DNA from: an uncultured Gammaproteobacteria bacterium
GTDB taxonomy: Bacteria; Pseudomonadota; Gammaproteobacteria; JAURND01
Length of the DNA stretch: 64,000 nucleotides
Reading direction: 5' to 3'
Assembly (NCBI GenBank): GCA_963714975.1
Contig: CAVQQD010000003.1
Location: forward strand, 288,001 to 352,000
Position numbers and translations under genes: made by a program
Shown: piece by piece, positions 27,521 to 45,221 of the stretch
How the letters are laid out: every line of letters starts with the position of its first letter
Position numbering within the stretch: position 1 is the first letter of the stretch
Notes under the pieces: generated by a model
What the model saw: only the letters and a program-made list of their open reading frames with translations
Database searches by the model: none
Told to the model about the DNA's origin: nothing

Positions 27521-29842
27521 TTAGGCTTCCTGAGGCGCCACATGTATCGTGACTGTATCACTATCTTCTTTTGTTGTTCCAGAAAAATCTTCCTTGTTAA
27601 GCCTTTTTTCTTCCGTTGGGGTTTGCAATGCAGCTAATGCTTTTGCATAATCAGCTTGATTTGCTAAATTCTCCACCTCTAAGTGATAGTTTGGATATCT
27701 TTTCTTATATTCCTTTGTCAGTTCCTGGTTCTGTTGATTGATTTGACATAATTTAATTAAAGCAAACACCAATAAAATCGTACTAACTCCGCATAAACCA
27801 ACGCCTGCATACAAACCTAAGCTGCCAATTGCTAAATTACTTATATCAAGCCCGCTATCAACAAGCGACAATCCCCCGGCTACGTAGCCTAAACTGGTGC
27901 CGAAAAATGCAGACTTACACCAAAACTTAGATCGCAATTGTAGATTAGGGATTGGGGCTATTAGCGTGTCAAGAGGGTAAACTAAAATTTTTTGTAGCTG
28001 CTCCAGTCCTGCATCCGATTGTTTTTTTTCAAGACATCGTACGCGCTCTTGCTGAATTATAAGAAACAATGCTTGTGATTTTTGTTTGCTAGTTTCCGGA
28101 AATATGAAAGATTTTGATACAATGGCCTCATCTAATGCAATAAAATCTTTAAAAATCTCATTTATATTTCGATACTCATTATTATTAGATGTTAGGTTGT
28201 TTCCCTTTAGAGTCTGCAAAAGAGTAGGTAATTTTGGAATTTCAGACTTTGGATTTTTCTCAATTAACTCAATAATTTCCTTGCGTCGTTTATTTAAGCT
28301 TCTAAAGGTGGCAGTGACGTCCAAGTGGGTAAACTTTGGTTTTCCTTTAGTCAAAAAATTAAAGACAAAATCTAAATTTTGATGAAATGACTGAAGCTGC
28401 TGATAAATTTCTTTATCAGCAGGTTGCAAAAGTAGGAAAGGGTCTTCGAGGGGTAATTTACGGGTAGTTAAGTATTGGTCATCAAGATATTCTTCTACCT
28501 CCAAGCGTTCTTCTACTTCTTCTTTAGTAATGGGACCCGTGTGGTCTTGGCGTGAATCCGAACTTGACTCTTTAGAATATTTTTTTTCCTCTTGCTGATC
28601 GTTGGTTGATTTATCTTTATTATTTTTAGGACAGTGATCCTCAACCAAATGATAAATGATTAAGCTTAAATCTTCTGGCGTGGGTTTAAAATCTGCTTTT
28701 TCATATTTTTGCTTTGCAAGATAGTTGCTCACATAATCTAGAGTTAAAATTTCTGGTTCGGGCTTGGATACTTGTTGATAAATTTCATTTGACCACTTTA
28801 CGATATCATCACAAATATCCCCACTAAAAAATTTAGGGTTGATTAGGGCCTCGCTAAGATCAGGCCGTTGCTGAGGATTTTCCTGGGTTAGGCTTTTAAT
28901 TAGCTCCATTAATCGGGTTAATCTGTCTCGGTCTTCTTTTGGTAGGTCTGAATTGGCTAATTGAGATGCTCTTTGCTTAAGCTTTTCTGCAACCATTGCT
29001 GATTTATTGGAAACTCCAATCGCTTGAAATTTTTGAGTACTTTTGATTCCCCAGGCTGGATGATTACGAATTAATTCAGCTAAGCTTTTGTATAGGATTA
29101 TTCCTAAGGAAAATACATCAGCTTTCTTTAGCTTTACCGGGTTTGATTCCAAGAGTTCCGGTGCAAAATAACTGGGTGAACCACACATTTTAACATCAGG
29201 GTTGGTTCCGTTTTCATTGACTCTGACAATAGTGCCAAGGTCACAATACTTGAAGTATAAAGAACCATGGTTGGTTTCGAAGACCAAAAGATTCTCAAAT
29301 TTTATATCACGATGAACCCTATTGTTTCGATGCAACTTATTTGTTAGTTTGATTAAGCTTTTAGCAATAGTTTCGACTGTGGCTAAGCTTAAAGTCTGCT
29401 TATCCATATAATCGAAAAAAGGTATTTTAGCCGCCAGAAAAATTTCTTGTCTAAATATTCCTCGAAACGTCGCCACTGTTTTATGTGCTAAAGGCCAGGC
29501 AATAGTATTCGCAGAGATGTTTTGGTCGGCGAGTTGTTGTTCTAACATTTCGGGTGAAAACACTGTTGATCGCCGGTGAAGACGCACCAAGGCAGCAGTT
29601 CTAGACCCTTTTTCTTCAGTGTTGTAGGGAATTCCCCGAAATTGACAGCTAATTTTTAGTTGTTCGCTTTGGATGCGGTCTACCTTCTGAACCTCGGCAC
29701 CCGTTTCCCCTTCAATTTCTTTCGCATCCTGAAATAAAGAGTTTATGCGTCTAGCATTGAAAGCTGGATTTGGCTTTACAGTTATGGGTTCTGACTGGGT
29801 TACGCGTTCTAGCCGTTCTAACTGTTGCAACTGTTCTAGCAT
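27521..29842 (-). CDS. Eukaryote-like Ser/Thr kinase-domain protein with C-terminal TM segments, paralog 1
   Basis: HRDIKFEN, DLG, GSPSYFAPE and KADVFSLG motifs. Confidence 0.85.
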   Translation of the reverse strand: MLEQLQQLERLERVTQSEPITVKPNPAFNARRINSLFQDAKEIEGETGAEVQKVDRIQSEQLKISCQFRGIPYNTEEKGSRTAALVRLHRRSTVFSPEMLEQQLADQNISANTIAWPLAHKTVATFRGIFRQEIFLAAKIPFFDYMDKQTLSLATVETIAKSLIKLTNKLHRNNRVHRDIKFENLLVFETNHGSLYFKYCDLGTIVRVNENGTNPDVKMCGSPSYFAPELLESNPVKLKKADVFSLGIILYKSLAELIRNHPAWGIKSTQKFQAIGVSNKSAMVAEKLKQRASQLANSDLPKEDRDRLTRLMELIKSLTQENPQQRPDLSEALINPKFFSGDICDDIVKWSNEIYQQVSKPEPEILTLDYVSNYLAKQKYEKADFKPTPEDLSLIIYHLVEDHCPKNNKDKSTNDQQEEKKYSKESSSDSRQDHTGPITKEEVEERLEVEEYLDDQYLTTRKLPLEDPFLLLQPADKEIYQQLQSFHQNLDFVFNFLTKGKPKFTHLDVTATFRSLNKRRKEIIELIEKNPKSEIPKLPTLLQTLKGNNLTSNNNEYRNINEIFKDFIALDEAIVSKSFIFPETSKQKSQALFLIIQQERVRCLEKKQSDAGLEQLQKILVYPLDTLIAPIPNLQLRSKFWCKSAFFGTSLGYVAGGLSLVDSGLDISNLAIGSLGLYAGVGLCGVSTILLVFALIKLCQINQQNQELTKEYKKRYPNYHLEVENLANQADYAKALAALQTPTEEKRLNKEDFSGTTKEDSDTVTIHVAPQEA

Positions 29843-30749: not shown

Positions 30750-33161
30750 TTAGGTTAGAGTGGGGCTTTTTTCCTCGGCGGGCGGGGTTTGCAATGCTGC
30801 TAATGCTTTTGCATAATCAGCCAGATCGGGTAATGCTTTTTGCTGTGTGTGTCGTTCCTCATTATAGATTTTGGTTAGGTCTTGATTTTTCTGATTGATT
30901 ATACAGCACTTAATTAAAGCAATAACCAGTAAAATTGTGCTTCCTCCAAGTACCCCAATGCCCGCATACAAGCCTAGGCTACCGATTGCTAAATTGCTTA
31001 TATCAAGCCCGCTATCAGCAAGTGACAATCCTCCGGCTAGATAGCCTAAACTGGCGCCAAAAAATCCAGACTTACACCAAAACATGGATTGTAATTTTAG
31101 TTCAGGTGGGGTGATATTACAGTGGTAGGTTAGAATTTTTTGTAGCTGCACAAGCCCGTCAGTCGATTTGCCTTGTTGAACAAGCCGTTTTCTTTCTCTC
31201 TGAATTAAGTGAAATAATGCCGTCGAATCTTGTTTTCCAGGATTTTTTGGGTGGTCAATATTTTCTAGCGGGATGAGAGAGGGGGAGGTTGCTTGCAGTG
31301 TAATTTCCTCATCCAACTTGGTAAAATTTTTAAAAATAAGGCTTAAATTAGTATCATCAGCATTAGAGGTAAGCTGGTTGTCTTTTAAGCTCTGCAAGAG
31401 GGGAGTGAACTTTGGATTTTCAGATTGTGGTTTTTTTTCTAAGCTCTCCAAGCGGGTGATTAACTCTGAGTTGGGATTTTCCTCAATTAACGTAATGAGC
31501 TCCTTGCGCTGTTTATTAATGCTTCTAAAGGTAGCAATAACGTCCCGGGAGGTAAAATTTGGCTTACCGTTTGTCAAAAAATTACGGATAAAATCTAAAT
31601 TCAGATGAAATGACTGAAGCCGATGATAAATCTCATTATCCGCAAGTTCTAAGAGTAAAAAAGGGTCCTCGAGGGGTAATTTACGGGTAGTTAAATATTG
31701 GCCATTAAGATATTCATCTATTTCTAAGCGTTTTTCTATTTCTTCTTTAGTAATGGGACCAACTGGTTTTTTCGATAAATTCAAACTTGGTTTTATAGCA
31801 CGTTTTTTCTCCTCTAGCGGACCGCTGGTTGATTTATTCTTATTATTTTTAGGGCAGTGATCCTCAACTAAATGATAGATAATTAAGCTTAAATCTTCTG
31901 GCGTGGGTTTAAAATCTGCTTTTTTATATTTTACCTCTGCAAGATACTCTCTCACATCATCCACAGTTAAAGTGATTGGTTTCGGCAGGGTTACCTGTTG
32001 ATAAATGTCATTTGACCATTTTAGGATATCATCACTAATATCCCCATTAAAAAATTTAGGGTCGGAGAGGACGGTGCTGAGATCAGGTCGATGGCGAGGA
32101 TTTTCCTGGGTGAGGCTTCTTATTAGAGCTATTAATCGCGTTAAACTAGCTTGCTCCTCTGTGGATAGGGTACATTGCTCTTGTTGTGCTTGAGATTCTA
32201 TTTCTTTAAGAGACTCTGCAACAACTTGGCATTTATTACTGCCATCAGTCTTTGAAAATTTGGAAGTAACTTGAACTCCCCAGGCTGGATAGTGAGAAAA
32301 TACCGCAATTAAGCCTTGGTAGAGGGTCATCCCTAGGGAAAAGACATCAGCTTTGGGTAAGCTGGGTGGGAAAATTTGCAGTTGCAAAAGTTCTGGTGCG
32401 CAATATAGGAGTGTTCCAGCCTGGTTACTCGCGTTATTGGCTTCGACCATAGTCCCAAGGTCACAGTATTTGAGGTATTCAGTACCATTATTGGTTCGAA
32501 AAACCAAAAAATTCTCAGGCTTGATATCCCGGTGCACCCAGCCCTTTTGATGTAATCTGTTGGTTAGCGTGATCAGATGTTTAGCAATGAGTTCTAATGT
32601 GGATAAGCTCTTGATTTTTTTGTCAATATAATGAGATAAGTCAAATTCAGCTGCGACAAAAATTTCTTGTGAAATAAATTTTGTTTTTGTGATAGGAAGA
32701 TTCAAATCTTGAATTATCTGAGATTCATAAACTTCTGCAGTCCCAACTGCTCTATACGCTAAAGGCCAGGCAATAATATTGGCCGGCATGTTTTCGTTGC
32801 TTAATTGCTCTAGCGTCTTGAAGGATAACTGCGAATGTCGCTCAAGGCGCACCAGAGCAGAATTTTTCTCCCACACAAATTGGGTTTCTTCGTTAGATAG
32901 ATTTTCCTTGATTTCTTTAGTCTCTGCAGTTTCTTGGGTTGGATAGGGAATTCCGCGAAATTGCTGGCTAATTTTTAGTTGTTTGCTTTGGATGCGTTCT
33001 ACCTTTTTAACCTCGGAGCCCGTTGCCATTATATTTTCTTCCGCATTCTGAAATACAGAGGCTATCCAGCTAGCATTGAAATCTGGATTTGGTTTGACAG
33101 TAAGGGGCTTGTTCTGTGTTAAGCGTTCTAGCTGTTCTAACTGTTGTAACTTTTCTAGCAT
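30750..33161 (-). CDS. Eukaryote-like Ser/Thr kinase-domain protein with C-terminal TM segments, paralog 2
   Basis: HRDIKPEN, DLG, GTLLYCAPE and KADVFSLG motifs; colinear with paralog 1. Confidence 0.85.
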   Translation of the reverse strand: MLEKLQQLEQLERLTQNKPLTVKPNPDFNASWIASVFQNAEENIMATGSEVKKVERIQSKQLKISQQFRGIPYPTQETAETKEIKENLSNEETQFVWEKNSALVRLERHSQLSFKTLEQLSNENMPANIIAWPLAYRAVGTAEVYESQIIQDLNLPITKTKFISQEIFVAAEFDLSHYIDKKIKSLSTLELIAKHLITLTNRLHQKGWVHRDIKPENFLVFRTNNGTEYLKYCDLGTMVEANNASNQAGTLLYCAPELLQLQIFPPSLPKADVFSLGMTLYQGLIAVFSHYPAWGVQVTSKFSKTDGSNKCQVVAESLKEIESQAQQEQCTLSTEEQASLTRLIALIRSLTQENPRHRPDLSTVLSDPKFFNGDISDDILKWSNDIYQQVTLPKPITLTVDDVREYLAEVKYKKADFKPTPEDLSLIIYHLVEDHCPKNNKNKSTSGPLEEKKRAIKPSLNLSKKPVGPITKEEIEKRLEIDEYLNGQYLTTRKLPLEDPFLLLELADNEIYHRLQSFHLNLDFIRNFLTNGKPNFTSRDVIATFRSINKQRKELITLIEENPNSELITRLESLEKKPQSENPKFTPLLQSLKDNQLTSNADDTNLSLIFKNFTKLDEEITLQATSPSLIPLENIDHPKNPGKQDSTALFHLIQRERKRLVQQGKSTDGLVQLQKILTYHCNITPPELKLQSMFWCKSGFFGASLGYLAGGLSLADSGLDISNLAIGSLGLYAGIGVLGGSTILLVIALIKCCIINQKNQDLTKIYNEERHTQQKALPDLADYAKALAALQTPPAEEKSPTLT

Positions 33162-37448: not shown

Positions 37449-38480
37449 ATGACAACTGAATTACGCGGCAAAGAGAAGATATTGTACGAATATGCTGTAA
37501 TCCCACCTGAACGTTCCCTTCAAGCAAATCCAGGCGAGAAAACAACAGAAAAATTGCTAGAAGAGCGTATTAATGGCATTTTTCTTAATGAGATTGAGCA
37601 TATTTTAGCCGAGACGAAGGGTGGTCATTCAGAACAAATATTTTTGGGAGATTATCAAGTTACTAGTATCCAAGATGGATTGTCAGAGTCAGCGCAGGGA
37701 TTCCAGCTAACTCATGTCGGGGGTTTAGAGGATGCCAAAAAAAAAGATCGAGAAGTAGAAATTGACGAGCTTGTCGATCTCTTAAAGCAAGACCTCGGTT
37801 TTAAAGGTGGCAAAGCACCTAAATCGCCAATGCGTCGTCCTCATTGCAAAATTTGGGCAGCAGGTCAAAGTCCAATGACAAACGATCCTTTTCCTATATT
37901 TAGATTGGTTGATCCGCCCAAGGAAAATGTTTATACGTTTCTAAAACCTCTTAGTCTGGTCAAGCATTACTACTCCGCAGAGCAGCTGCTAAATGCTAAA
38001 GCTTCTGGAGGAGAATATCACGGGTTTTCTAAGGACAGGACCCGAGCTTGGTCAGATAACAAACCACCATACTATACAGCCCACTATAGGCATCTAGAGG
38101 AGAAGAGGAGCTCAAATACAACCGTACCATACTATCAGCAAGTGAAATGCTCTGATGATGATTTGGGGCATGGACTCAAGGATTTTTATTTTGACTATGA
38201 GGCTTTTAATATAAACAAGTCAACATTTGTTGCAAATACCTATAAACCAGTCAGTGCTATAGCAGCGACGGCGATAGCCGGAAATGTTTTATTTTTTCAT
38301 TTTGTATCACTACAAGACCTGAGAGCACCAATGTTTGGTGCGATCCCTGTTGTACTAGCAGAGGTCCTTCTTTTGTACCTTCTTGTAGTATCAATTAGCG
38401 CGGAATTTACTCGACAACAGGATGAATATTTTGAAACTGCTTGTATTCAAAGAGATCCTGAATCAATAGTACTAACTTAA
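37449..38480 (+). CDS. Hypothetical protein with two C-terminal TM segments, paralog A
   Basis: 343-aa ORF, GAGGA RBS, colinear with 42815..43876. Confidence 0.8.
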   Translation: MTTELRGKEKILYEYAVIPPERSLQANPGEKTTEKLLEERINGIFLNEIEHILAETKGGHSEQIFLGDYQVTSIQDGLSESAQGFQLTHVGGLEDAKKKDREVEIDELVDLLKQDLGFKGGKAPKSPMRRPHCKIWAAGQSPMTNDPFPIFRLVDPPKENVYTFLKPLSLVKHYYSAEQLLNAKASGGEYHGFSKDRTRAWSDNKPPYYTAHYRHLEEKRSSNTTVPYYQQVKCSDDDLGHGLKDFYFDYEAFNINKSTFVANTYKPVSAIAATAIAGNVLFFHFVSLQDLRAPMFGAIPVVLAEVLLLYLLVVSISAEFTRQQDEYFETACIQRDPESIVLT

Positions 38481-39010: not shown

Positions 39011-39301
39011 TCACATTGAGCTTTTTATTTGTTTTTTTAGAAGGCTATAAAAATTTTCGTGAGGGGCAAACGAGACCAAGGTTAATTCATCCGTTTCTTC
39101 TTCATAAAGGTAAGCAAGCAATATTAATTGCTGTAAAATACGAAACTTATAAACACGAATCCCAGCTAAATCTCCCTTCTTTAATTCACCAATAGGAGGG
39201 TCGTTCTCAATTTCCTCAATTGCTTCTTTAAGCGCAACCAATTGATTACGATGCAGCTTTTTCGCTGCGCGTAAGAAAGTATTGGTTCGTAAAACCTTCA
39301 T
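39011..39301 (-). CDS. RelE/ParE-family toxin
   Basis: IGELKKGDLAGIRVYKF and HENFY motifs. Confidence 0.88.
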   Translation of the reverse strand: MKVLRTNTFLRAAKKLHRNQLVALKEAIEEIENDPPIGELKKGDLAGIRVYKFRILQQLILLAYLYEEETDELTLVSFAPHENFYSLLKKQIKSSM

Positions 39302-39522
39302 AATTCATCCGGATCATATTCTTGAACATTACCAAGTCGCACATCTTCGAGACCCAACAAAATTCCTTTAACAGCCTCATAGTTAAGGTCTGGATTTTCT
39401 TCAGCAATACGACCTATTTTGGCCCAGTGCTCGATCTGCTTAGGGACGGAACGGCTTTCTGCTCTAGAATAAGAACGCGCAATACTAACTAAGTCATTAT
39501 CTAAATTAACAGCAATTCCCAT
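39298..39522 (-). CDS. ParD-like antitoxin
   Basis: RSVPKQIEHWAKIGRIAEENPDL motif; overlaps the toxin start. Confidence 0.88.
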   Translation of the reverse strand: MGIAVNLDNDLVSIARSYSRAESRSVPKQIEHWAKIGRIAEENPDLNYEAVKGILLGLEDVRLGNVQEYDPDEL

Positions 39523-39889
39523 GATCTACCTCCAATAATTTACTTAACTAAAGTATACAATATAATATTGCTTAATGCAATAAGGAATTACAATATATAA
39601 CATTACATTAAGCTTGATTATTGACTCTTCAGCCTCATTACCATATCCAACGGTCAAATCCAATTCGAATGACATTAATTAAAATGATACGGAACACTTC
39701 CGCCCTGAGAAAAGGCATAACAATTGCTAAACCCACGTAAAAACTGACTAATCCCTGAGCAAGATCAGTTAAAATCGCAGCCCGGCTCCTATCGGTTCAA
39801 CAAGAAGATAAATGTACTGTAGTGTCTACCTGTTTTGGATTCGCTTTTTACTGTATTGAGTTTGGCTTTGACCAGAATATAATAGCCGC

Positions 39890-41086
39890 ATGAAAATACA
39901 ACAAGCATTTAGATTCCGTATTGAGCCGAATGGTGCGCAAAAACGCGCGATGAGTCAGTTTGCGGGTAATGCACGTAAGGTTTGGAATTTAGCATTAGCG
40001 CGTCAACAAGAGCTCTATGCCGAAAACAAACCGTTTACCCATAGCTTTGGTATGAATCACTGGTTGTTAGTATGGAAAAAAGCAATGCCCTACCTGCAAC
40101 AATCGCCTTCCCAAACCTTGCAACAAGTCACCAAGGACCTTGATCGCGCATTTAAAAACCTCTTCGCCCACCGTGCTGCTTTCCCAAAATTCAAGAAAAA
40201 AGCTCACTCATCAGCTAGTTTTCGTTTTCCACAAGGGTTTAAGCTCGATCAAGATAATAACCGTATTTTTCTGCCAAAGTTGGGATGGATACGCTATCGC
40301 AACAGTCGCGATGTAGTAGGGAAAATTAAAAACGTCATCGTTAAGCAATGCAATGGCTTGTGGTTTGTATCAGTGCAGGCCGAGCGTGAAGAGAGTCAAC
40401 CCTTGCCAACAGCTACTACCCCAGTGGGTATCGATATGGGTATTGCACGTTTTGCTACGATGAGTGATGGGACCTATGTCGAACCCGTGAATAGCTTCAA
40501 AAAACATCAAGCACGTAACGTCGCCTCAAGCGTAAGAAAAAATTTAGTCGTAATTGGATAAAAGCCCAAAGACGGGTTCAAAAGACTCACAACACGATTG
40601 CCAATGTCAGACAAGATTTTCTGCACAAAACCAGCACCGCGATCAGCAAAAACCACGCGCTCGTCTGTGTTGAGGATTTGCAGATAGCTGCAATGTCGAA
40701 ATCTGCCCAAGGCAATTGTGAGCAGCACGGTCGCCAGGTCAGACAAAAGGCAGGTTTAAATCGTGCCATACTGGATCAGGGTTGGGGCGAATTTCGACGC
40801 CAATTAGCTTACAAGCTTGAGTGGAACGGCGGCATTTTTCTGGCGGTGGATCCCGAAAAATACCAGTCGAACCTGTCCTGCCTGTCAGCACGTTTGTGCA
40901 GACAATCGCAAAACGCAAGCTGAGTTTGTTTGCGTGCGTTGCGGCTATAGCCACCATGCCGATGTGGTTGGCGCGATCAATATTTTAGAGCGGGGGCACC
41001 GCTTGCTAGCTTGTGGAGAGAAGACGCAGTCAGGTCGCTCGAGGAAGCAAGAACCCACCGAAGCGAGTTGCGCACAGGTTGCGTAA
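39890..41086 (+). pseudogene. tnpB: IS200/IS605-family TnpB, frameshifted near 40515 and 40860
   Basis: QAFRFR, FPKFKK, GIDMG, VEDL, GLNRAILDQGWGEF, TSRTCPAC, CVRCG and [11 protein letters not shown] motifs across three frames. Confidence 0.9.
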
Positions 41087-41092
41087 CCGCAG

Positions 41093-41121
41093 TAGGAATC
41101 CTCGCCCTTTAGGGCGAGGAG
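41093..41121 (+). mobile_element. IS200/IS605 right-end hairpin, 5' part; the remainder GATGTCAA is displaced to 42347-42354
   Basis: tcctcgccc-ttta-gggcgagga hairpin; rejoined end reads GGAATCCTCGCCCTTTAGGGCGAGGAGGATGTCAA. Confidence 0.85.
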
Positions 41122-41136
41122 ATACCGTCTCATCTG

Positions 41137-42102
41137 TCAAGCTAATTTTAATATATTTTGATCAAACACGGTTTCAGATTTTAGTATCCCGTAAATCATA
41201 TGAACAAGCTTTCTCATTACTGCGCCAATAATAACCATTTTGTGTTTGCCGGTTTTTTCTAGTCGCATAGAAAAATTTCTGAGTATTGGGTTATGTCTCA
41301 TGGCGACAACAGCGGGCATATAAAATGCTTTTCTTAGAGCCGAATCACCTGTTTTAGAGAGTCTAGCTCTACCATTGATAGAGGTTCCTGATTGTCGTTG
41401 CTTGGGATTAAGACCAACGAATGCCGCCAATTCTTTCGCATTATTGAATTTACTCACATTCCCAATAAAAGCCAATATCTGCGCTGTAGTTGCTTCTCCA
41501 ATACCAGGAATAGATTGCAATAGCTTGCTTTTTTTCTTCATGTCAGGATCGCTATTTATGTGATTTTTAATGACATTTTTAACTTCCTTAATATTGTTTT
41601 CTAAGTGGATAATGTTCTCTTGTATGTGCTCCTTTAAACAATCATCAGAGACTTCTAATCGGTTTGCTTCTTGCCTGTGCATAGCGATTAAATCATCCAA
41701 TCTCCTAACCCATTGCTGTAATATTTTAATCGGTTCAGGAGTTGGTTGCCATAATTCTGGGCCTATCAACTTACAAAATCTTGCAATTAATTTTGCATCA
41801 AGAATATCATTTTTAGAGCGGGCTAATTCACTTTGAGAAAATCCTTTAATTCTCGCAGGATTAACAACGCTTATAGGGATTTCTTGAGCATAAAGAAATT
41901 CGGCTAATGCCTGCCCGTAAATACTGGTTGCTTCCATACAAGCTTGAGACAACACGATTTCCTTCTGGTTTAGCCATACAAGTAATTTATTAAAGCCTTG
42001 CTCGTTATTGTTGAATTTTTGAGTTTTTATCTTATCTTCCATTAGCACAGCTACATCAAATGTATTTTTACTGATATCAATGCCTAGAAATGCTTTCTTC
42101 AT
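41137..42102 (-). CDS. IS110 bridge recombinase (DEDD RuvC plus Tnp domain), intact
   Basis: GIDISK, MEATS, KNDILDA, IPGIG and QSGTS motifs. Confidence 0.95.
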   Translation of the reverse strand: MKKAFLGIDISKNTFDVAVLMEDKIKTQKFNNNEQGFNKLLVWLNQKEIVLSQACMEATSIYGQALAEFLYAQEIPISVVNPARIKGFSQSELARSKNDILDAKLIARFCKLIGPELWQPTPEPIKILQQWVRRLDDLIAMHRQEANRLEVSDDCLKEHIQENIIHLENNIKEVKNVIKNHINSDPDMKKKSKLLQSIPGIGEATTAQILAFIGNVSKFNNAKELAAFVGLNPKQRQSGTSINGRARLSKTGDSALRKAFYMPAVVAMRHNPILRNFSMRLEKTGKHKMVIIGAVMRKLVHMIYGILKSETVFDQNILKLA

Positions 42103-42136
42103 AGTAGTATCCTACATGTTGCGAATAGCTTGGATA

Positions 42137-42310
42137 GCTTTATTCGGACCAACCTTGTGAATACAGGATCATTGATATTTACCTCAAGTCCTAAGATACC
42201 GTCCGGTCTGTATGAATAAAGTACGGGGTAAATTGCTAAAATCTCCTCTACAGGCTTAATGCCTTAGGAAGTCACCGGCATATTTACCCCTATCCAAGTG
42301 CCCTTGGATA
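42137..42310 (-). ncRNA. Bridge RNA
   Basis: 5' hairpin, then a target loop (guides TGACTTCCT and GAGGAG) and a donor loop (guides ACGGTATCT and ACAAG) matching the insertion site and element ends. Confidence 0.85.
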
Positions 42311-42368
42311 TTTAACCACATTGAGTGATTGGAATTAAGATACAAGGATGTCAAAACTTTTAGGGGTA

Positions 42369-42438
42369 CCAGAATAAGAGAATAAGTGAAATTTGTTCGG
42401 TAGCAAGGGAACAAATTTCACTTATTCTCTTATTCTGG
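42369..42438. repeat. Perfect 30-bp inverted repeat with 10-nt spacer
   Basis: ccagaataagagaataagtgaaatttgttc / gaacaaatttcacttattctcttattctgg. Confidence 0.85.
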
Positions 42439-42814
42439 GGGAGAGTGGTAGTTATAAAAATATTCTCGGATTCACCTGATACAAGGTTGTAGGCTTTTTA
42501 GTATGGGTCAATTTAATGGGAAGACTAACTATATTACGTTGATGCAACCAAACTAATACTTTGGCCAATCGCTCGGGTTTGCGAAACCTTAATTTTCCTG
42601 TTCCCTGGATCCCTGTATCCATGTAGGGATGACGGGGGCTGCGGTGATTCGCCGAGAATTAGTTAGGTCGTGAATTAAATTCCCACCCTCTCCGCCGATT
42701 CCATTTTAGAATTGCTGCGTGTCGCTGTATCCTAAAATAACTTTGAACAATGTATCAGCATAAATTAGTTGTTTAGAAGGCTGCCCTGGAAACAGGAAGG
42801 GCAGCAATGAGAGT

Positions 42815-43876
42815 TCACTTTATAGTTGTATTTGGCGTTGATTCAGGATCTCTTTCAATAAGAGCAGTTTCTAGATATTCATGCTTTTGTCGATTATATT
42901 CCCCGTCAATTGTTACTATAAGAAGTACAAAAAGGAAGGCTTCCGCGAATATAAAAGGTAGAGGTCCAAGCCCATCCAGCGATCTCCCAATGTCTTGTAG
43001 TGATACAAAATGAAAAAGTAAAACATTTCCTGCTATCGCCGCTGCTGCTATAGTACTAACTGGTTTATAGGTATTTGAAACAAATGTTGACTTATCTACT
43101 TTAAAAGCCTCATAGTCAAAATAAAAATCCTTTAGCCCACGACCTAAATCATCATCAGAGCATTTCACTTGCTGATAGTATGTTACGGCTGAATTTGAGC
43201 TATTCTTGTCTTCTAACTGCTTATAATGGGCTGTATAGTATGCTGATTTGTCTGACCATGATTGTCGTTTCCGTGCCTCAGAAAACCCGTAATATTCTCC
43301 CCCAGGAGCTTTAGCATTTATCAGCTGGTTTGGGGAGTAATACTTGCTTCGACTAAGAGGCGTTAGAAATGTATAAACACTTTTGCTTTCCCCTTGAGGT
43401 GGCTCAAGCAATCTAAATATAGGAAAAGGCTCGTCAGTCATTGGACTTTGACCTGCTGCCAAAATTTTGCAATAAGGACGGCGCGTTGGCGATTTAGGTG
43501 CTTTGCCGCCTTTAAAACCGAGGTCTTGCTTTAAGAGGTCGACAAGCTTGTTAATTTCTACACCATCTTGCTCTTGCTCTTTAGCCTCCTCTAAACCCAC
43601 GACACGTGTTAGCTTGAATCGTTGTCCTGACTCTGACGATTCATCGTTGATACTAGTAACTTGGTAATCCCCCAAGAATATTTTTTCTGAATGACCACCC
43701 TGCGTCTGGTCTAAAATATGTTTGATCTCATTAAGAAAAATGTTATCAATACGCTCCTCTAACAATTCTTTACGTGTTTTCTGGTTTGGTTTAGCTAGAA
43801 CGGAAGGGTCAGGTGGGATTACAGCATATTCATACAATGTCAACTCGTTGTGTAATTCAGTTGTACCTTGTTGCAT
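42815..43876 (-). CDS. Hypothetical protein with two C-terminal TM segments, paralog B
   Basis: 353-aa ORF sharing LKQDLGFKGGKAPKSP and YYQQVKCSDDDLG with paralog A. Confidence 0.8.
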   Translation of the reverse strand: MQQGTTELHNELTLYEYAVIPPDPSVLAKPNQKTRKELLEERIDNIFLNEIKHILDQTQGGHSEKIFLGDYQVTSINDESSESGQRFKLTRVVGLEEAKEQEQDGVEINKLVDLLKQDLGFKGGKAPKSPTRRPYCKILAAGQSPMTDEPFPIFRLLEPPQGESKSVYTFLTPLSRSKYYSPNQLINAKAPGGEYYGFSEARKRQSWSDKSAYYTAHYKQLEDKNSSNSAVTYYQQVKCSDDDLGRGLKDFYFDYEAFKVDKSTFVSNTYKPVSTIAAAAIAGNVLLFHFVSLQDIGRSLDGLGPLPFIFAEAFLFVLLIVTIDGEYNRQKHEYLETALIERDPESTPNTTIK

Positions 43877-44216: not shown

Positions 44217-45221
44217 ATGTCCCCCAAAAATAAAACTATTGATCTTCCTGTTCCTAATACTCCTCACGACAATTTTTTTGTGAACTGCTTGTCAGACTTA
44301 ACCACCGCTAAGGAATTTCTATTACAGCATCTTCCACAACCACTGTTGGATGTCTTGGATTTGACCACCCTGGAAATAGATCACAGTCGCTTCGTGAGTT
44401 CTATTTTATGTTCTCGCTATGCCGATATTGTATTTAAGGCGCGACTTAAAAATTCCCAACAAACAGCCTTGATCATTACCCATATTGAGCATCAATTGAC
44501 TCCAAAGAGGGATATGCCAGTACGTGTTTTGCTTTATCAGACCGGAGTTATTAAAGATTATTGGTACCGATGCAAACAAATTCCCCTGGTGTATTCGATA
44601 GTTTATTACAATGGCAAAGAGGTTTGGCATTATCCCACTGACCTTAAGGCGATGATCAATGCGTCAGCGGATCTAATTGACCGTTATTTTCTCCAGCCTT
44701 TTCAATTAATACACTCAAAAGAAGTCCCTGATGAAGCATCAGGGCAAACTTTCCTGTTGGATTTGATGCAAATAACCATGGGGCATATTCACGATAGTGA
44801 TATGCTACCAGTATTTAAAGAGAAAATAATGGGCAGGTTAATTACCGCTGAAAAACACGGTAGACAAGATTTAATCTTAATCGTAATATACTATATTATA
44901 AGTACCGGTGAAATTAGCGATAAAAATGCTTTTTATGCGCTGGTTGATTCCCAATTATCTCAAGAAACTGGAGAAAAAGTTATGACTTTAGCACAACAGT
45001 GGCGTGAAGAAGGGCGCCAAGAAGAAAGAGAAAAAACTATGACTTTAGCTCAGCAGTGGCGTGAAGAAGGACGCCAAGAAGAAAGAGAAAAAACTATGAC
45101 TTTAGCACAGCAGTGGCGTGAAGAGGGGCACCAAGAAGAAAGGTTGATAGTAGCTGCTTCTATGTTAGAACAAGGCTTTAGTCCCGAAGTGATTGCTCAA
45201 GTCACCGGCTTATCTGTGTAA
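44217..45221 (+). CDS. Rpn-family (YhgA-like) nuclease with three C-terminal 19-aa repeats
   Basis: PHDNFF, YADIVF, IEHQ, VYYNG and MTLAQQWREEG x3. Confidence 0.9.
   Translation: MSPKNKTIDLPVPNTPHDNFFVNCLSDLTTAKEFLLQHLPQPLLDVLDLTTLEIDHSRFVSSILCSRYADIVFKARLKNSQQTALIITHIEHQLTPKRDMPVRVLLYQTGVIKDYWYRCKQIPLVYSIVYYNGKEVWHYPTDLKAMINASADLIDRYFLQPFQLIHSKEVPDEASGQTFLLDLMQITMGHIHDSDMLPVFKEKIMGRLITAEKHGRQDLILIVIYYIISTGEISDKNAFYALVDSQLSQETGEKVMTLAQQWREEGRQEEREKTMTLAQQWREEGRQEEREKTMTLAQQWREEGHQEERLIVAASMLEQGFSPEVIAQVTGLSV
44971..45141 (+). repeat. 3 x 57-bp coding tandem repeat
   Basis: Units start at 44971, 45028 and 45085. Confidence 0.9.

Follow-up and report, generated by a model that had tools for sequence, protein, structure and literature searches.

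The window analysed here is a 64,000-nt stretch of the genome of an uncultured Gammaproteobacteria bacterium (positions 288,001 to 352,000 of contig CAVQQD010000003.1, assembly GCA_963714975.1), in which an IS110-family element interrupts the right end of a decayed, TnpB-only transposon of the IS605 family. The IS110 element, delimited from its other copies in the genome and from its junctions, occupies positions 41122-42346 on the minus strand (1225 bp, with the core counted once) and carries a recombinase gene of 321 amino acids (aa; 41137-42102, minus strand) with matches to PF01548 (3.5e-24) and PF02371 (9.5e-29). Against solved structures, residues 4-315 of the recombinase aligned with ISCro4 (9t56, E = 2.3e-74) and IS621 (8wt6, E = 1.3e-72), and the GID, MEAT, D..DA and SK.G motifs are kept in a pairwise alignment with ISCro4; the closest enterobacterial relatives of the recombinase show approximately 45% protein identity.

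A CT dinucleotide is found at both junctions of the element, at 41120-41121 next to its right end (AG on the plus strand) and at 42345-42346 at its left end, and CT is also kept at both junctions in homologues; because of its presence at both junctions, the element is considered to be bounded by the core as in IS621. Terminal inverted repeats are absent. In the IS110 group the bridge RNA is located upstream of the recombinase gene (PMC11208160, PMC11187229), and as the non-coding left end extends over 244 nt upstream of the gene, with merely 15 nt after it at the right end, the layout is that of this group. Every feature that could be tested assigns the element to the IS110 group. In addition, a TTGACA sequence at 41135-41140 and a TATCTT sequence at 42337-42342, both on the minus strand and read by eye, are candidate -35 and -10 hexamers; when the right and left ends (RE-LE) are joined in an excised circle, they are separated by 17 nt. 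The pair, of which TTGACA is kept in a metagenome homologue (locus L060, see below), would fit the promoter described across the RE-LE junction of the IS621 circle (PMC11208160).

The interrupted TnpB-only element, which belongs to a group of paralogues referred to here as family A, extends on the plus strand from 39811 to 41121. Its homology to the paralogues starts only at approximately 39811, indicating that the element lacks the outer hairpin of its left end. Compared with the 402-aa paralogues, its tnpB gene (39890-41086, plus strand) carries a deletion of 13 bp and an insertion of 1 bp and is broken into three open reading frames (ORFs), and HTH_OrfB_IS605, OrfB_IS605 and Cas12f1-like_TNB domains were found by Pfam on its pieces, while an intact 402-aa paralogue contains HTH_OrfB_IS605, OrfB_IS605 (RuvC) and zinc-ribbon/TNB domains. 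The right end includes a perfect hairpin, CCTCGCCC-TTTA-GGGCGAGG (41100-41119, plus strand), which is presumed to be the binding site of the transposase TnpA and the last stem of the guide-RNA scaffold, and a GAAT (41096-41099, plus strand) lies directly 5' of it. The plan is that of IS608, which has an identically placed GAAT as its right guide sequence (GR) and TCAA as its cleavage site (CR) (PMC5934647, Fig. 1 legend). A weak match below threshold to the 3' end of sotRNA RF02656 (E = 0.13) was also obtained at 41098-41120. The tip of this right end, GATG followed by TCAA (GATGTCAA), has been displaced to the far side of the IS110 element (42347-42354, plus strand), where TCAA (42351-42354) is the presumed TnpA cleavage motif; judging from its position and from what is established about guide RNAs, the adjoining flank (42355-42374, plus strand) would have supplied the TnpB guide if the right end were intact.

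Deletion of 41122-42346 in silico yields a right end of the form hairpin-GAGG-AG-GATGTCAA. Among the paralogues of this genome, four with an uninterrupted right end read G(A/G)GGAG|GA(C/A)GTCAA there before running into unrelated flanks, which places the insert between the hairpin and the terminal 8 nt, exactly where an earlier interpretation of this locus (the sequence-only reading) had put it. That reconstruction of the empty site also agrees with X4 (record 9), one contig of low depth from a public metagenome, which carries ...GAGGAG|GATGTCAA... uninterrupted, the exact variant of the window. On the minus strand, the full target reads TGACATC-CT-CCTC, in which the displaced tip is the left target (UGACAUC) and the first arm of the hairpin is the right target (CCTC).

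Besides family A, the genome contains a complete IS605-type element of 1.77 kb (family B) that encodes a Y1 TnpA and a 390-aa TnpB, the latter 44% identical to the family-A TnpB. The three matches to PF01797 (Y1 TnpA) in the genome, one of them without a stop, are located in this tnpA-tnpB element, and the left-end hairpin is present in family B and in three family-A paralogues. As the ends of family B resemble those of the TnpB-only family, family B is the likely source of TnpA in trans. Complete family-B copies lie at C2:659100-660867, C2:507708-509476 and C1:106237-108004, and the TAG stop is absent from only one of the tnpA frames.

A bridge RNA with the organization of IS621, i.e., a target-binding loop followed by a donor-binding loop, in which the left guides have the sense of the top strand and the right guides are complementary to it (PMC11208160), can be predicted from the minus strand of the IS110 left end. 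This region folds more stably than its shuffled versions (minimum-free-energy fold, z = -3.2, with 0 of 200 shuffles as good), and the fold contains a stem between GGGGUAAAU (42282-42290) and AUUUACCCC (42225-42233) that closes the target loop; both arms are supported by homologues and by L060, the pairing being kept relative to the latter through two compensatory pairs. Within this loop, the left target guide (LTG) UGACUUCCU (42266-42274) and the right target guide (RTG) GAGGAG (42243-42248), which was located from alignment columns and from L060 and may extend to GUAGAGGAG (42251-42243), are separated by a small hairpin. The RTG matches the target at 6/6 positions and the LTG at 8-9 of 9, depending on the copy. 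The positions that the sequence-only reading had assigned to the two guides (42274-42266 and 42248-42243) and its closing stem GGGGUAAAU/AUUUACCCC were all borne out. To that account we can add a donor-binding loop: the left donor guide (LDG) GACGGUAUCU (42194-42203) is identical over 10/10 positions to the last 8 nt of the element plus the CT core, and the right donor guide (RDG) ACAAG (42154-42158) is complementary to the CT+TGT at the left end of the element. All of these segments lie on the minus strand.

The donor guides and the termini, CTTGTAT... and ...ACAGTAT-CT, are nearly invariant among homologues, as are AC-AAGG in the RDG region and the CTTGT with which the left ends of the homologues start. 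When 18 sequences were folded jointly with RNAalifold, the consensus contained the inner hairpin of the target loop and the two stems of the donor loop, with 8/16 pairs still paired despite changes on both sides. The outer target-loop stem was not recovered from these 18 sequences because the clades were aligned out of register; it is visible in several clades as complementary arms of differing sequence. In an Rfam scan of 39500-43000 with E values up to 1, no bridge-RNA or TnpB guide-RNA family was found. The traJ-II and mir-1006 matches obtained in that scan are taken as chance, both falling on an unrelated, near-perfect palindrome of approximately 77 nt (42366-42442) that begins 12 nt past the TnpB right-end tip.

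The rest of the genome (three contigs, 2.56 Mb), searched by BLAST, harbors further copies of the element. In total, it is found at six places, as four full copies that differ from one another at 2-9 of 1225 positions, one truncated copy (713 nt) and one remnant of approximately 33 nt of the left end. At five of the six, the left-end junction abuts a G(A/T)GTCAA tip, at different loci with different distal flanks. Three of the four full copies interrupt TnpB right ends and are bordered by hairpin-GAGGAG and, at the opposite end, by GATGTCAA; the neighboring tip is GAAGTCAA for the truncated copy and GATGTCAA for the remnant, and all copies are inserted in one orientation. These junctions support the proposal of the sequence-only reading that the right end serves as a multicopy landing pad. 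The same reading had predicted, from the single mismatch of the window LTG, a preferred end variant GAAGTCAA; this variant does exist, at three loci, one of which is occupied by the truncated copy, and the other two are empty and carry a right-target mismatch. The truncated copy (C1:90926-91638) itself lies in a 311-aa open frame that extends past the IS110 match. A TnpB right-end fragment cut inside the hairpin (C1:83134-83200) is situated 7.7 kb from it in the same orientation, which suggests a later insertion or rearrangement between the two.

The fourth full copy occupies a look-alike site (...GTAGAGGAG|GAAGGACA...), which reads GTCCTTC-CT-CCTCTAC on the element strand. Its left target matches at only 4/7 positions, and its right target, CT-CCTCTAC, pairs with the extended guide GUAGAGGAG. 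Extended RTGs have been described for IS621 (PMC11208160), and half-matched off-target insertion has been reported (10.64898/2026.08.31.748434). Whether the site is a decayed right end was also considered and rejected, since the local alignment score of 17 is close to the shuffle mean of 16.6 (sd 2.1) and was reached by 218 of 500 shuffles.

The empty sites bear on the specificity as well. A perfect TGACTTCCTCCTC is absent genome-wide, and of the five sites with one mismatch, three are TnpB right ends and two have a broken CT core; thus, all three empty sites with at most one mismatch and an intact core are TnpB right ends. The empty right ends further include three family-A copies with the right target CCCC, and the family-B site, TGACATC-CT-CTCC, is empty in 3/3 full copies read, with three further fragments standing outside this count.

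Guide and target also vary together within this genome. Among the five IS110 copies compared there are 13 variable columns, one of which is LTG position 5 (element position 77, window position 42270). This position is A in the copies at C3 ~468 kb and C2 ~654 kb, both inserted at TGACATC, so that their LTG, UGACAUCCU, matches at 9/9 positions; it is U in the truncated copy at TGACTTC, again a perfect match, and U in the look-alike-site copy, where the target base is T (GTCCTTC). Overall, LTG position 5 agrees with the target base in 4/5 copies. The 8/9 match given by the sequence-only reading is therefore correct for the window copy, which has U at this position, and does not hold for the two copies with UGACAUCCU.

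Homologues were collected in three sets: 50 loci of named genomes (proteins 36-56% identical; mainly from Microcoleus and other cyanobacteria, with two from enterobacteria), 25 metagenome loci, and 17 loci from other genomes of the class. The class search covered 400 genomes, of which 14 had a match at E <= 1e-60 (a count that includes the source genome, G000, and locus L098 of genome G302, which is also one of the 17 class loci), and nothing nearer than 55% was found by protein search among them. The DNA of the element was not found in 60 related genomes, as the single match among 61 was the source genome itself. The left ends of the homologues align with that of the window element, the predicted guides share alignment columns with the guides of distant homologues, and the LTG columns vary together with the 7 nt preceding each element. 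In 34 scorable rows (the window element and 33 homologues), the guide matches the flank at 7/7 positions in 27, at 6/7 in six and at 4/7 in one, the last being L034, a row with a misaligned non-coding region that was kept; 12 of the 46 rows had no scorable left flank, either because the element end was not found by motif or because the contig ended. Over 11 guide classes, the LTG-flank match averaged 6.3/7 for cognate pairs versus 3.2/7 for non-cognate pairs. The RTG columns covary less (cognate 2.4 versus non-cognate 1.7 of 4), with L032 (AAA) and L033 (AGG) as clear cases.

A second member of the lineage is L060, on a metagenome contig of 2868 nt, in which the recombinase is 76% identical in amino acids and the left end 93% identical in nucleotides to those of the window. 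This element is inserted at TTGACGTC-CT|...|CT-CCCCGCCCTGAAGAGGCGAGG, the same position in an IS605 right end. A TnpB of 383 aa, encoded on the other strand, and the first part of a Y1 tnpA adjoin it, both frames being open. Its LTG is the same as that of the window copy, again with a single mismatch at position 5. Its RTG is GUCGGGGAG (GGGGAG) in place of GUAGAGGAG (GAGGAG), its own right target is CCCC, and the changed guide would thus pair with the CCCCG of its own target. The target-loop stem contains two compensatory pairs (GGGAUAAGU/ACUUAUCCC). In a further contig (X3; single, low depth), a hairpin of the family-B type (...CTCCGGCATTTATGCCGGA-GAG|) is joined, at the corresponding position, to the right end of a 95-99% similar IS110; the contig covers the right-end junction and not the target loop of this variant.

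Taken together, these comparisons indicate that the window harbors, very probably, an IS621-like IS110 element whose programmed insertion site is the right end of IS608-like IS605/TnpB transposons, and RNA-guided targeting of IS605 right ends is well supported by them. The sequence-only reading had held the insertion to be guided rather than accidental, and recurrence at the same position and in the same orientation, covariation over the 11 guide classes, the polymorphism at LTG position 5 and the compensating RTG change of L060 all speak for this. In the proposed mechanism, the target-binding loop would pair with 5'-TGAC(W)TC-CT-CCTC-3', the left guide matching the transposon tip (as the reverse complement of GAWGTCA), the CT core corresponding to the AG directly after the hairpin, and the right guide pairing with the hairpin's first arm. 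The donor-binding loop would pair with the joined ends of the element itself, and recombination at the CT core would place the 1225-bp element between the hairpin and the TCAA motif in one orientation only. The bridge RNA may be expressed from the promoter rebuilt in the excised circle, and the bridge RNA of one copy may act on another copy.

Several observations weigh against this interpretation and were taken into account. The window copy itself has U at LTG position 5 while residing at TGACATC, and thus carries one mismatch with its own site (8/9). Either this position is tolerant or the bridge RNA of an A-type copy may have acted in trans, as bridge RNA does in IS621 (PMC11208160). The locus would also lend itself to the study of mismatch tolerance, as left-target position 5 seems tolerant and right-target position 2 seems not. 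One full copy, at the look-alike site, lies outside recognizable TnpB ends and shows no significant similarity to them beyond the site, and the site at C3 ~268.4 kb (TGACGTC-CT-CCTC), which offers a perfect right target with one left mismatch, is empty. The known members of the lineage are those of this genome and L060, plus the one low-depth contig, and no TnpB was found beside the right end in the other 91 homologue loci (no match in 49/50, 24/25 and 17/17 of the three sets), the remaining locus of the 50 having one weak, distant TnpB match. The activity of the IS110 element is a prediction.

Recurrence would be uninformative about targeting if a single ancestral insertion had been followed by copying of the composite TnpB::IS110 unit, through TnpA, recombination or segmental duplication. 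The shared GATGTCAA tip of all three occupied full-length sites, found in 0/4 empty copies, could be read in this way, as could the two A-guide IS110 copies, the closest pair, which differ at 2/1225 positions and have TnpB 3' parts with 0 mismatches in 295. However, in one part the TnpB remnants of this same pair differ at 8/379 positions and by indels, and the 5' TnpB part of C2_655k is closest not to the occupied copy C3_470k (8/379 mismatches) but to the empty copy C2_610k (0/379). Two of the occupied TnpB bodies differ at 42/1229 positions (3.4%), while their IS110 elements differ at 7/1225 (0.6%), and the right-end hairpins of occupied copies differ by an indel. Moreover, the truncated copy abuts a different tip (GAAGTCAA), one copy lies outside TnpB, L060 and the X3 contig represent separate events in other IS605 types, and copying driven by TnpA would require the hairpin and TCAA to work together over 1.2 kb. 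The insertions thus appear to be independent events, and composite duplication, which is largely rejected, is very improbable as the source of the pattern. Still less credit is due to the view that site choice depends chiefly on DNA structure or on contacts between protein and hairpin, with guide complementarity secondary or a by-product. It is true that the target abuts a hairpin here and also in the cyanobacterial relatives (in a palindrome arm, AAACCCGCCCC), that the enterobacterial relatives have flanks we take to be REP-like (REP, repetitive extragenic palindromic) from their appearance, and that ISPpu10 is reported to need a target stem-loop in addition to bridge-RNA pairing (10.64898/2026.03.19.712850). 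Nevertheless, guides and flanks change jointly in 11 classes and between the window element and L060, hairpin-bearing right ends with one or two right-target mismatches are empty, and the look-alike site is occupied without a recognizable right-end hairpin. The hairpin may instead have a helper role beside guide pairing.

The consequences of guided insertion for the TnpB transposon are a separate matter. In IS608, the cleavage site is recognized by base pairing to the guide tetranucleotide that adjoins the hairpin (PMC5934647); excision requires intact ends, a mutated end motif leading to excision at another look-alike motif, and the TnpB guide RNA consists of the right-end scaffold joined to a guide transcribed from the flank past the boundary (10.1101/2023.03.14.532601). 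From this site recognition, the need for intact ends and the anatomy of the scaffold, we infer that the 1225-bp insert should block or misdirect excision by TnpA and split the guide-RNA scaffold from its guide. On the plus strand, the TTGACA in the right end of the IS110 element becomes TGTCAA, 14-19 nt past the junction, and is kept in L060; as it resembles the displaced tip, it could act as an alternative TnpA cleavage motif and mislead cleavage.

It is possible, if short of probable, that the targeting is RNA-guided without being antagonistic, the right end being a repeated, harmless site in TnpB copies that were already dead when hit. In two of the three occupied copies tnpB is already disrupted; the outer hairpin of the left end, required for excision, is absent from the two occupied full-length copies, and the third (C2_655k) has lost its 5' part, all of which speaks for this view. 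Furthermore, the three family-A copies with a complete left end all read GGGGAG, which is unmatched by the resident guide, and all are empty, and the relatives use repeated palindromes outside genes. On the other hand, the occupied copy C3_470k keeps an intact 402-aa tnpB, and L060 resides in an IS605 element with open tnpB and tnpA frames. Either decay or insertion may have come first, and the association of GGGGAG, an empty site and a complete left end fits escape from the IS110 element, decay after insertion, or a preference for old copies. A stronger proposal treats this IS110 lineage as a parasite dedicated to IS605/TnpB transposons and engaged with them in a sequence arms race, in which insertion would silence the host transposon. 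It would draw on the way in which the guides track right-end variants (LTG U/A versus tip T/A, RTG GAGG/GGGG versus foot CCTC/CCCC), and the three GGGGAG copies could then be escape variants, as the resident guide is mismatched to them; we consider this proposal unlikely as it stands.

The flanks of more distant relatives indicate how such a specificity may have arisen. In the cyanobacterial relatives, the element occupies the arm of a palindrome (...AAACCCGCCC-CT-AC...) that recurs and, given the further uninterrupted copies nearby, is probably a REP-like repeat, and the flank of one enterobacterial relative resembles an E. coli-type REP. As the other homologue loci lack a TnpB gene beside the right end and the relatives sit in palindromic or REP-like flanks, the targeting of IS605 ends appears to have arisen by reprogramming inside a clade that targets REPs, and the clade as a whole does not share it. 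In the upstream flanks of L007-L056, the insertion lies in the right arm of GGGGCGGGTTT...AAACCCGCCCC-TAC, with more uninterrupted copies of the motif nearby. The Microcoleus-type loci L008-L053 additionally carry arrays of repeats of approximately 20-21 nt (GCGATCGTACCGACAATCAG-like) in variable copy number between the left terminus and the bridge RNA, approximately 230-520 nt upstream of the recombinase gene.

Several other features were observed in the neighborhood of the two elements. Two paralogous ORFs, at 37449-38480 (plus strand) and 42815-43876 (minus strand), encode proteins of 343 and 353 aa that are similar from the N-terminus; they face each other in inverted orientation, flanking a toxin-antitoxin pair, the TnpB relic and the IS110 element, and neither protein matched an NCBIfam family. 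The small overlapping gene pair at 39011-39522 (minus strand; 96 and 74 aa) adjoins the TnpB relic, and its 96-aa protein weakly resembles YafQ-type addiction toxins (E = 1e-4, below cut-off). An ORF of the Rpn-family nuclease/putative transposase type (44217-45221, plus strand) ends in three C-terminal tandem repeats of approximately 19 aa (MTLAQQWREEG.QEERE.). Farther away, two large ORFs on the minus strand (27521-29842 and 30750-33161) contain Ser/Thr kinase-like regions; their matches to several kinase families, among them a model for a Dot/Icm effector kinase, are weak and below threshold and may hint at an intracellular lifestyle.

In comparison with known systems, the IS110 element described here resembles IS621 and ISCro4 in both protein domains, in the left-end bridge RNA with a target loop followed by a donor loop, in the CT core, in the order LTG, inner hairpin and RTG, and in the lack of inverted repeats; a candidate promoter can also be read across its circle junction. 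It differs from them in that its target is the right end of an IS605/TnpB transposon, whereas theirs is a REP element, and in that its RTG pairs with the core plus 4 nt, or with 7 nt at one site. The target transposon, in turn, is of the IS608/ISDra2 type: as in IS608, GAAT lies 5' of its subterminal hairpin and TCAA at its terminus, its TnpB has HTH, RuvC and TNB domains, and a Y1 TnpA is encoded in the genome; unlike that type, it is present here mostly as TnpB-only copies, which were probably mobilized in trans, and the guide RNA is predicted from the anatomy of the right end.

The Tn21-family transposons and IS1384 are DDE transposons, and their ends are known targets of the wider family. 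IS4321/IS5075 target Tn21-family transposons at their inverted repeats and IS1383 targets those of IS1384, according to reference titles in PMC11208160 and PMC11187229. These IS110/IS1111 members resemble the element of this study in having the conserved end of another transposon as their specific site; however, their targets are terminal inverted repeats, whereas the target here is the hairpin end of a single-strand transposon, which also serves as a guide-RNA scaffold. The guide RNA of IS4321/IS5075 is placed downstream of the gene by a general statement in PMC11187229. In the literature covered, including 10.64898/2026.08.14.744561, we found no IS110 element targeting IS200/IS605 or TnpB ends, although the supplementary target data of PMC11208160 and PMC11187229, which lay outside this scope, could list one. 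IS605/TnpB right ends thus appear to be an undescribed target class, addressed by a canonical mechanism, and would extend the IS110 target list (REPs, attC sites and other transposon ends) to IS200/IS605 right ends. The gain is ecological and evolutionary, not mechanistic, as a known mechanism is seen in the interplay of two RNA-guided transposons: the locus would represent a natural example in which the guide-RNA-encoding end of one RNA-guided mobile element is the programmed target of another, with guide reprogramming visible at single-nucleotide resolution, both within one genome and between two samples.

REPs are mobilized by IS200-like Y1 transposases, and the substrates of Y1 transposases, which combine a hairpin with a short motif, may be a recurrent landing site for this clade, as the present comparison suggests. 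REP targeting is common among IS110 elements (PMC11208160), and ISPpu9, ISPpu10 (10.64898/2026.03.19.712850) and IS621, like the element in the window, insert beside a repeated hairpin and thereby spare genes. The REPs, however, are non-coding relics, whereas the hairpin targeted here belongs to a transposon that still encodes an RNA-guided nuclease.

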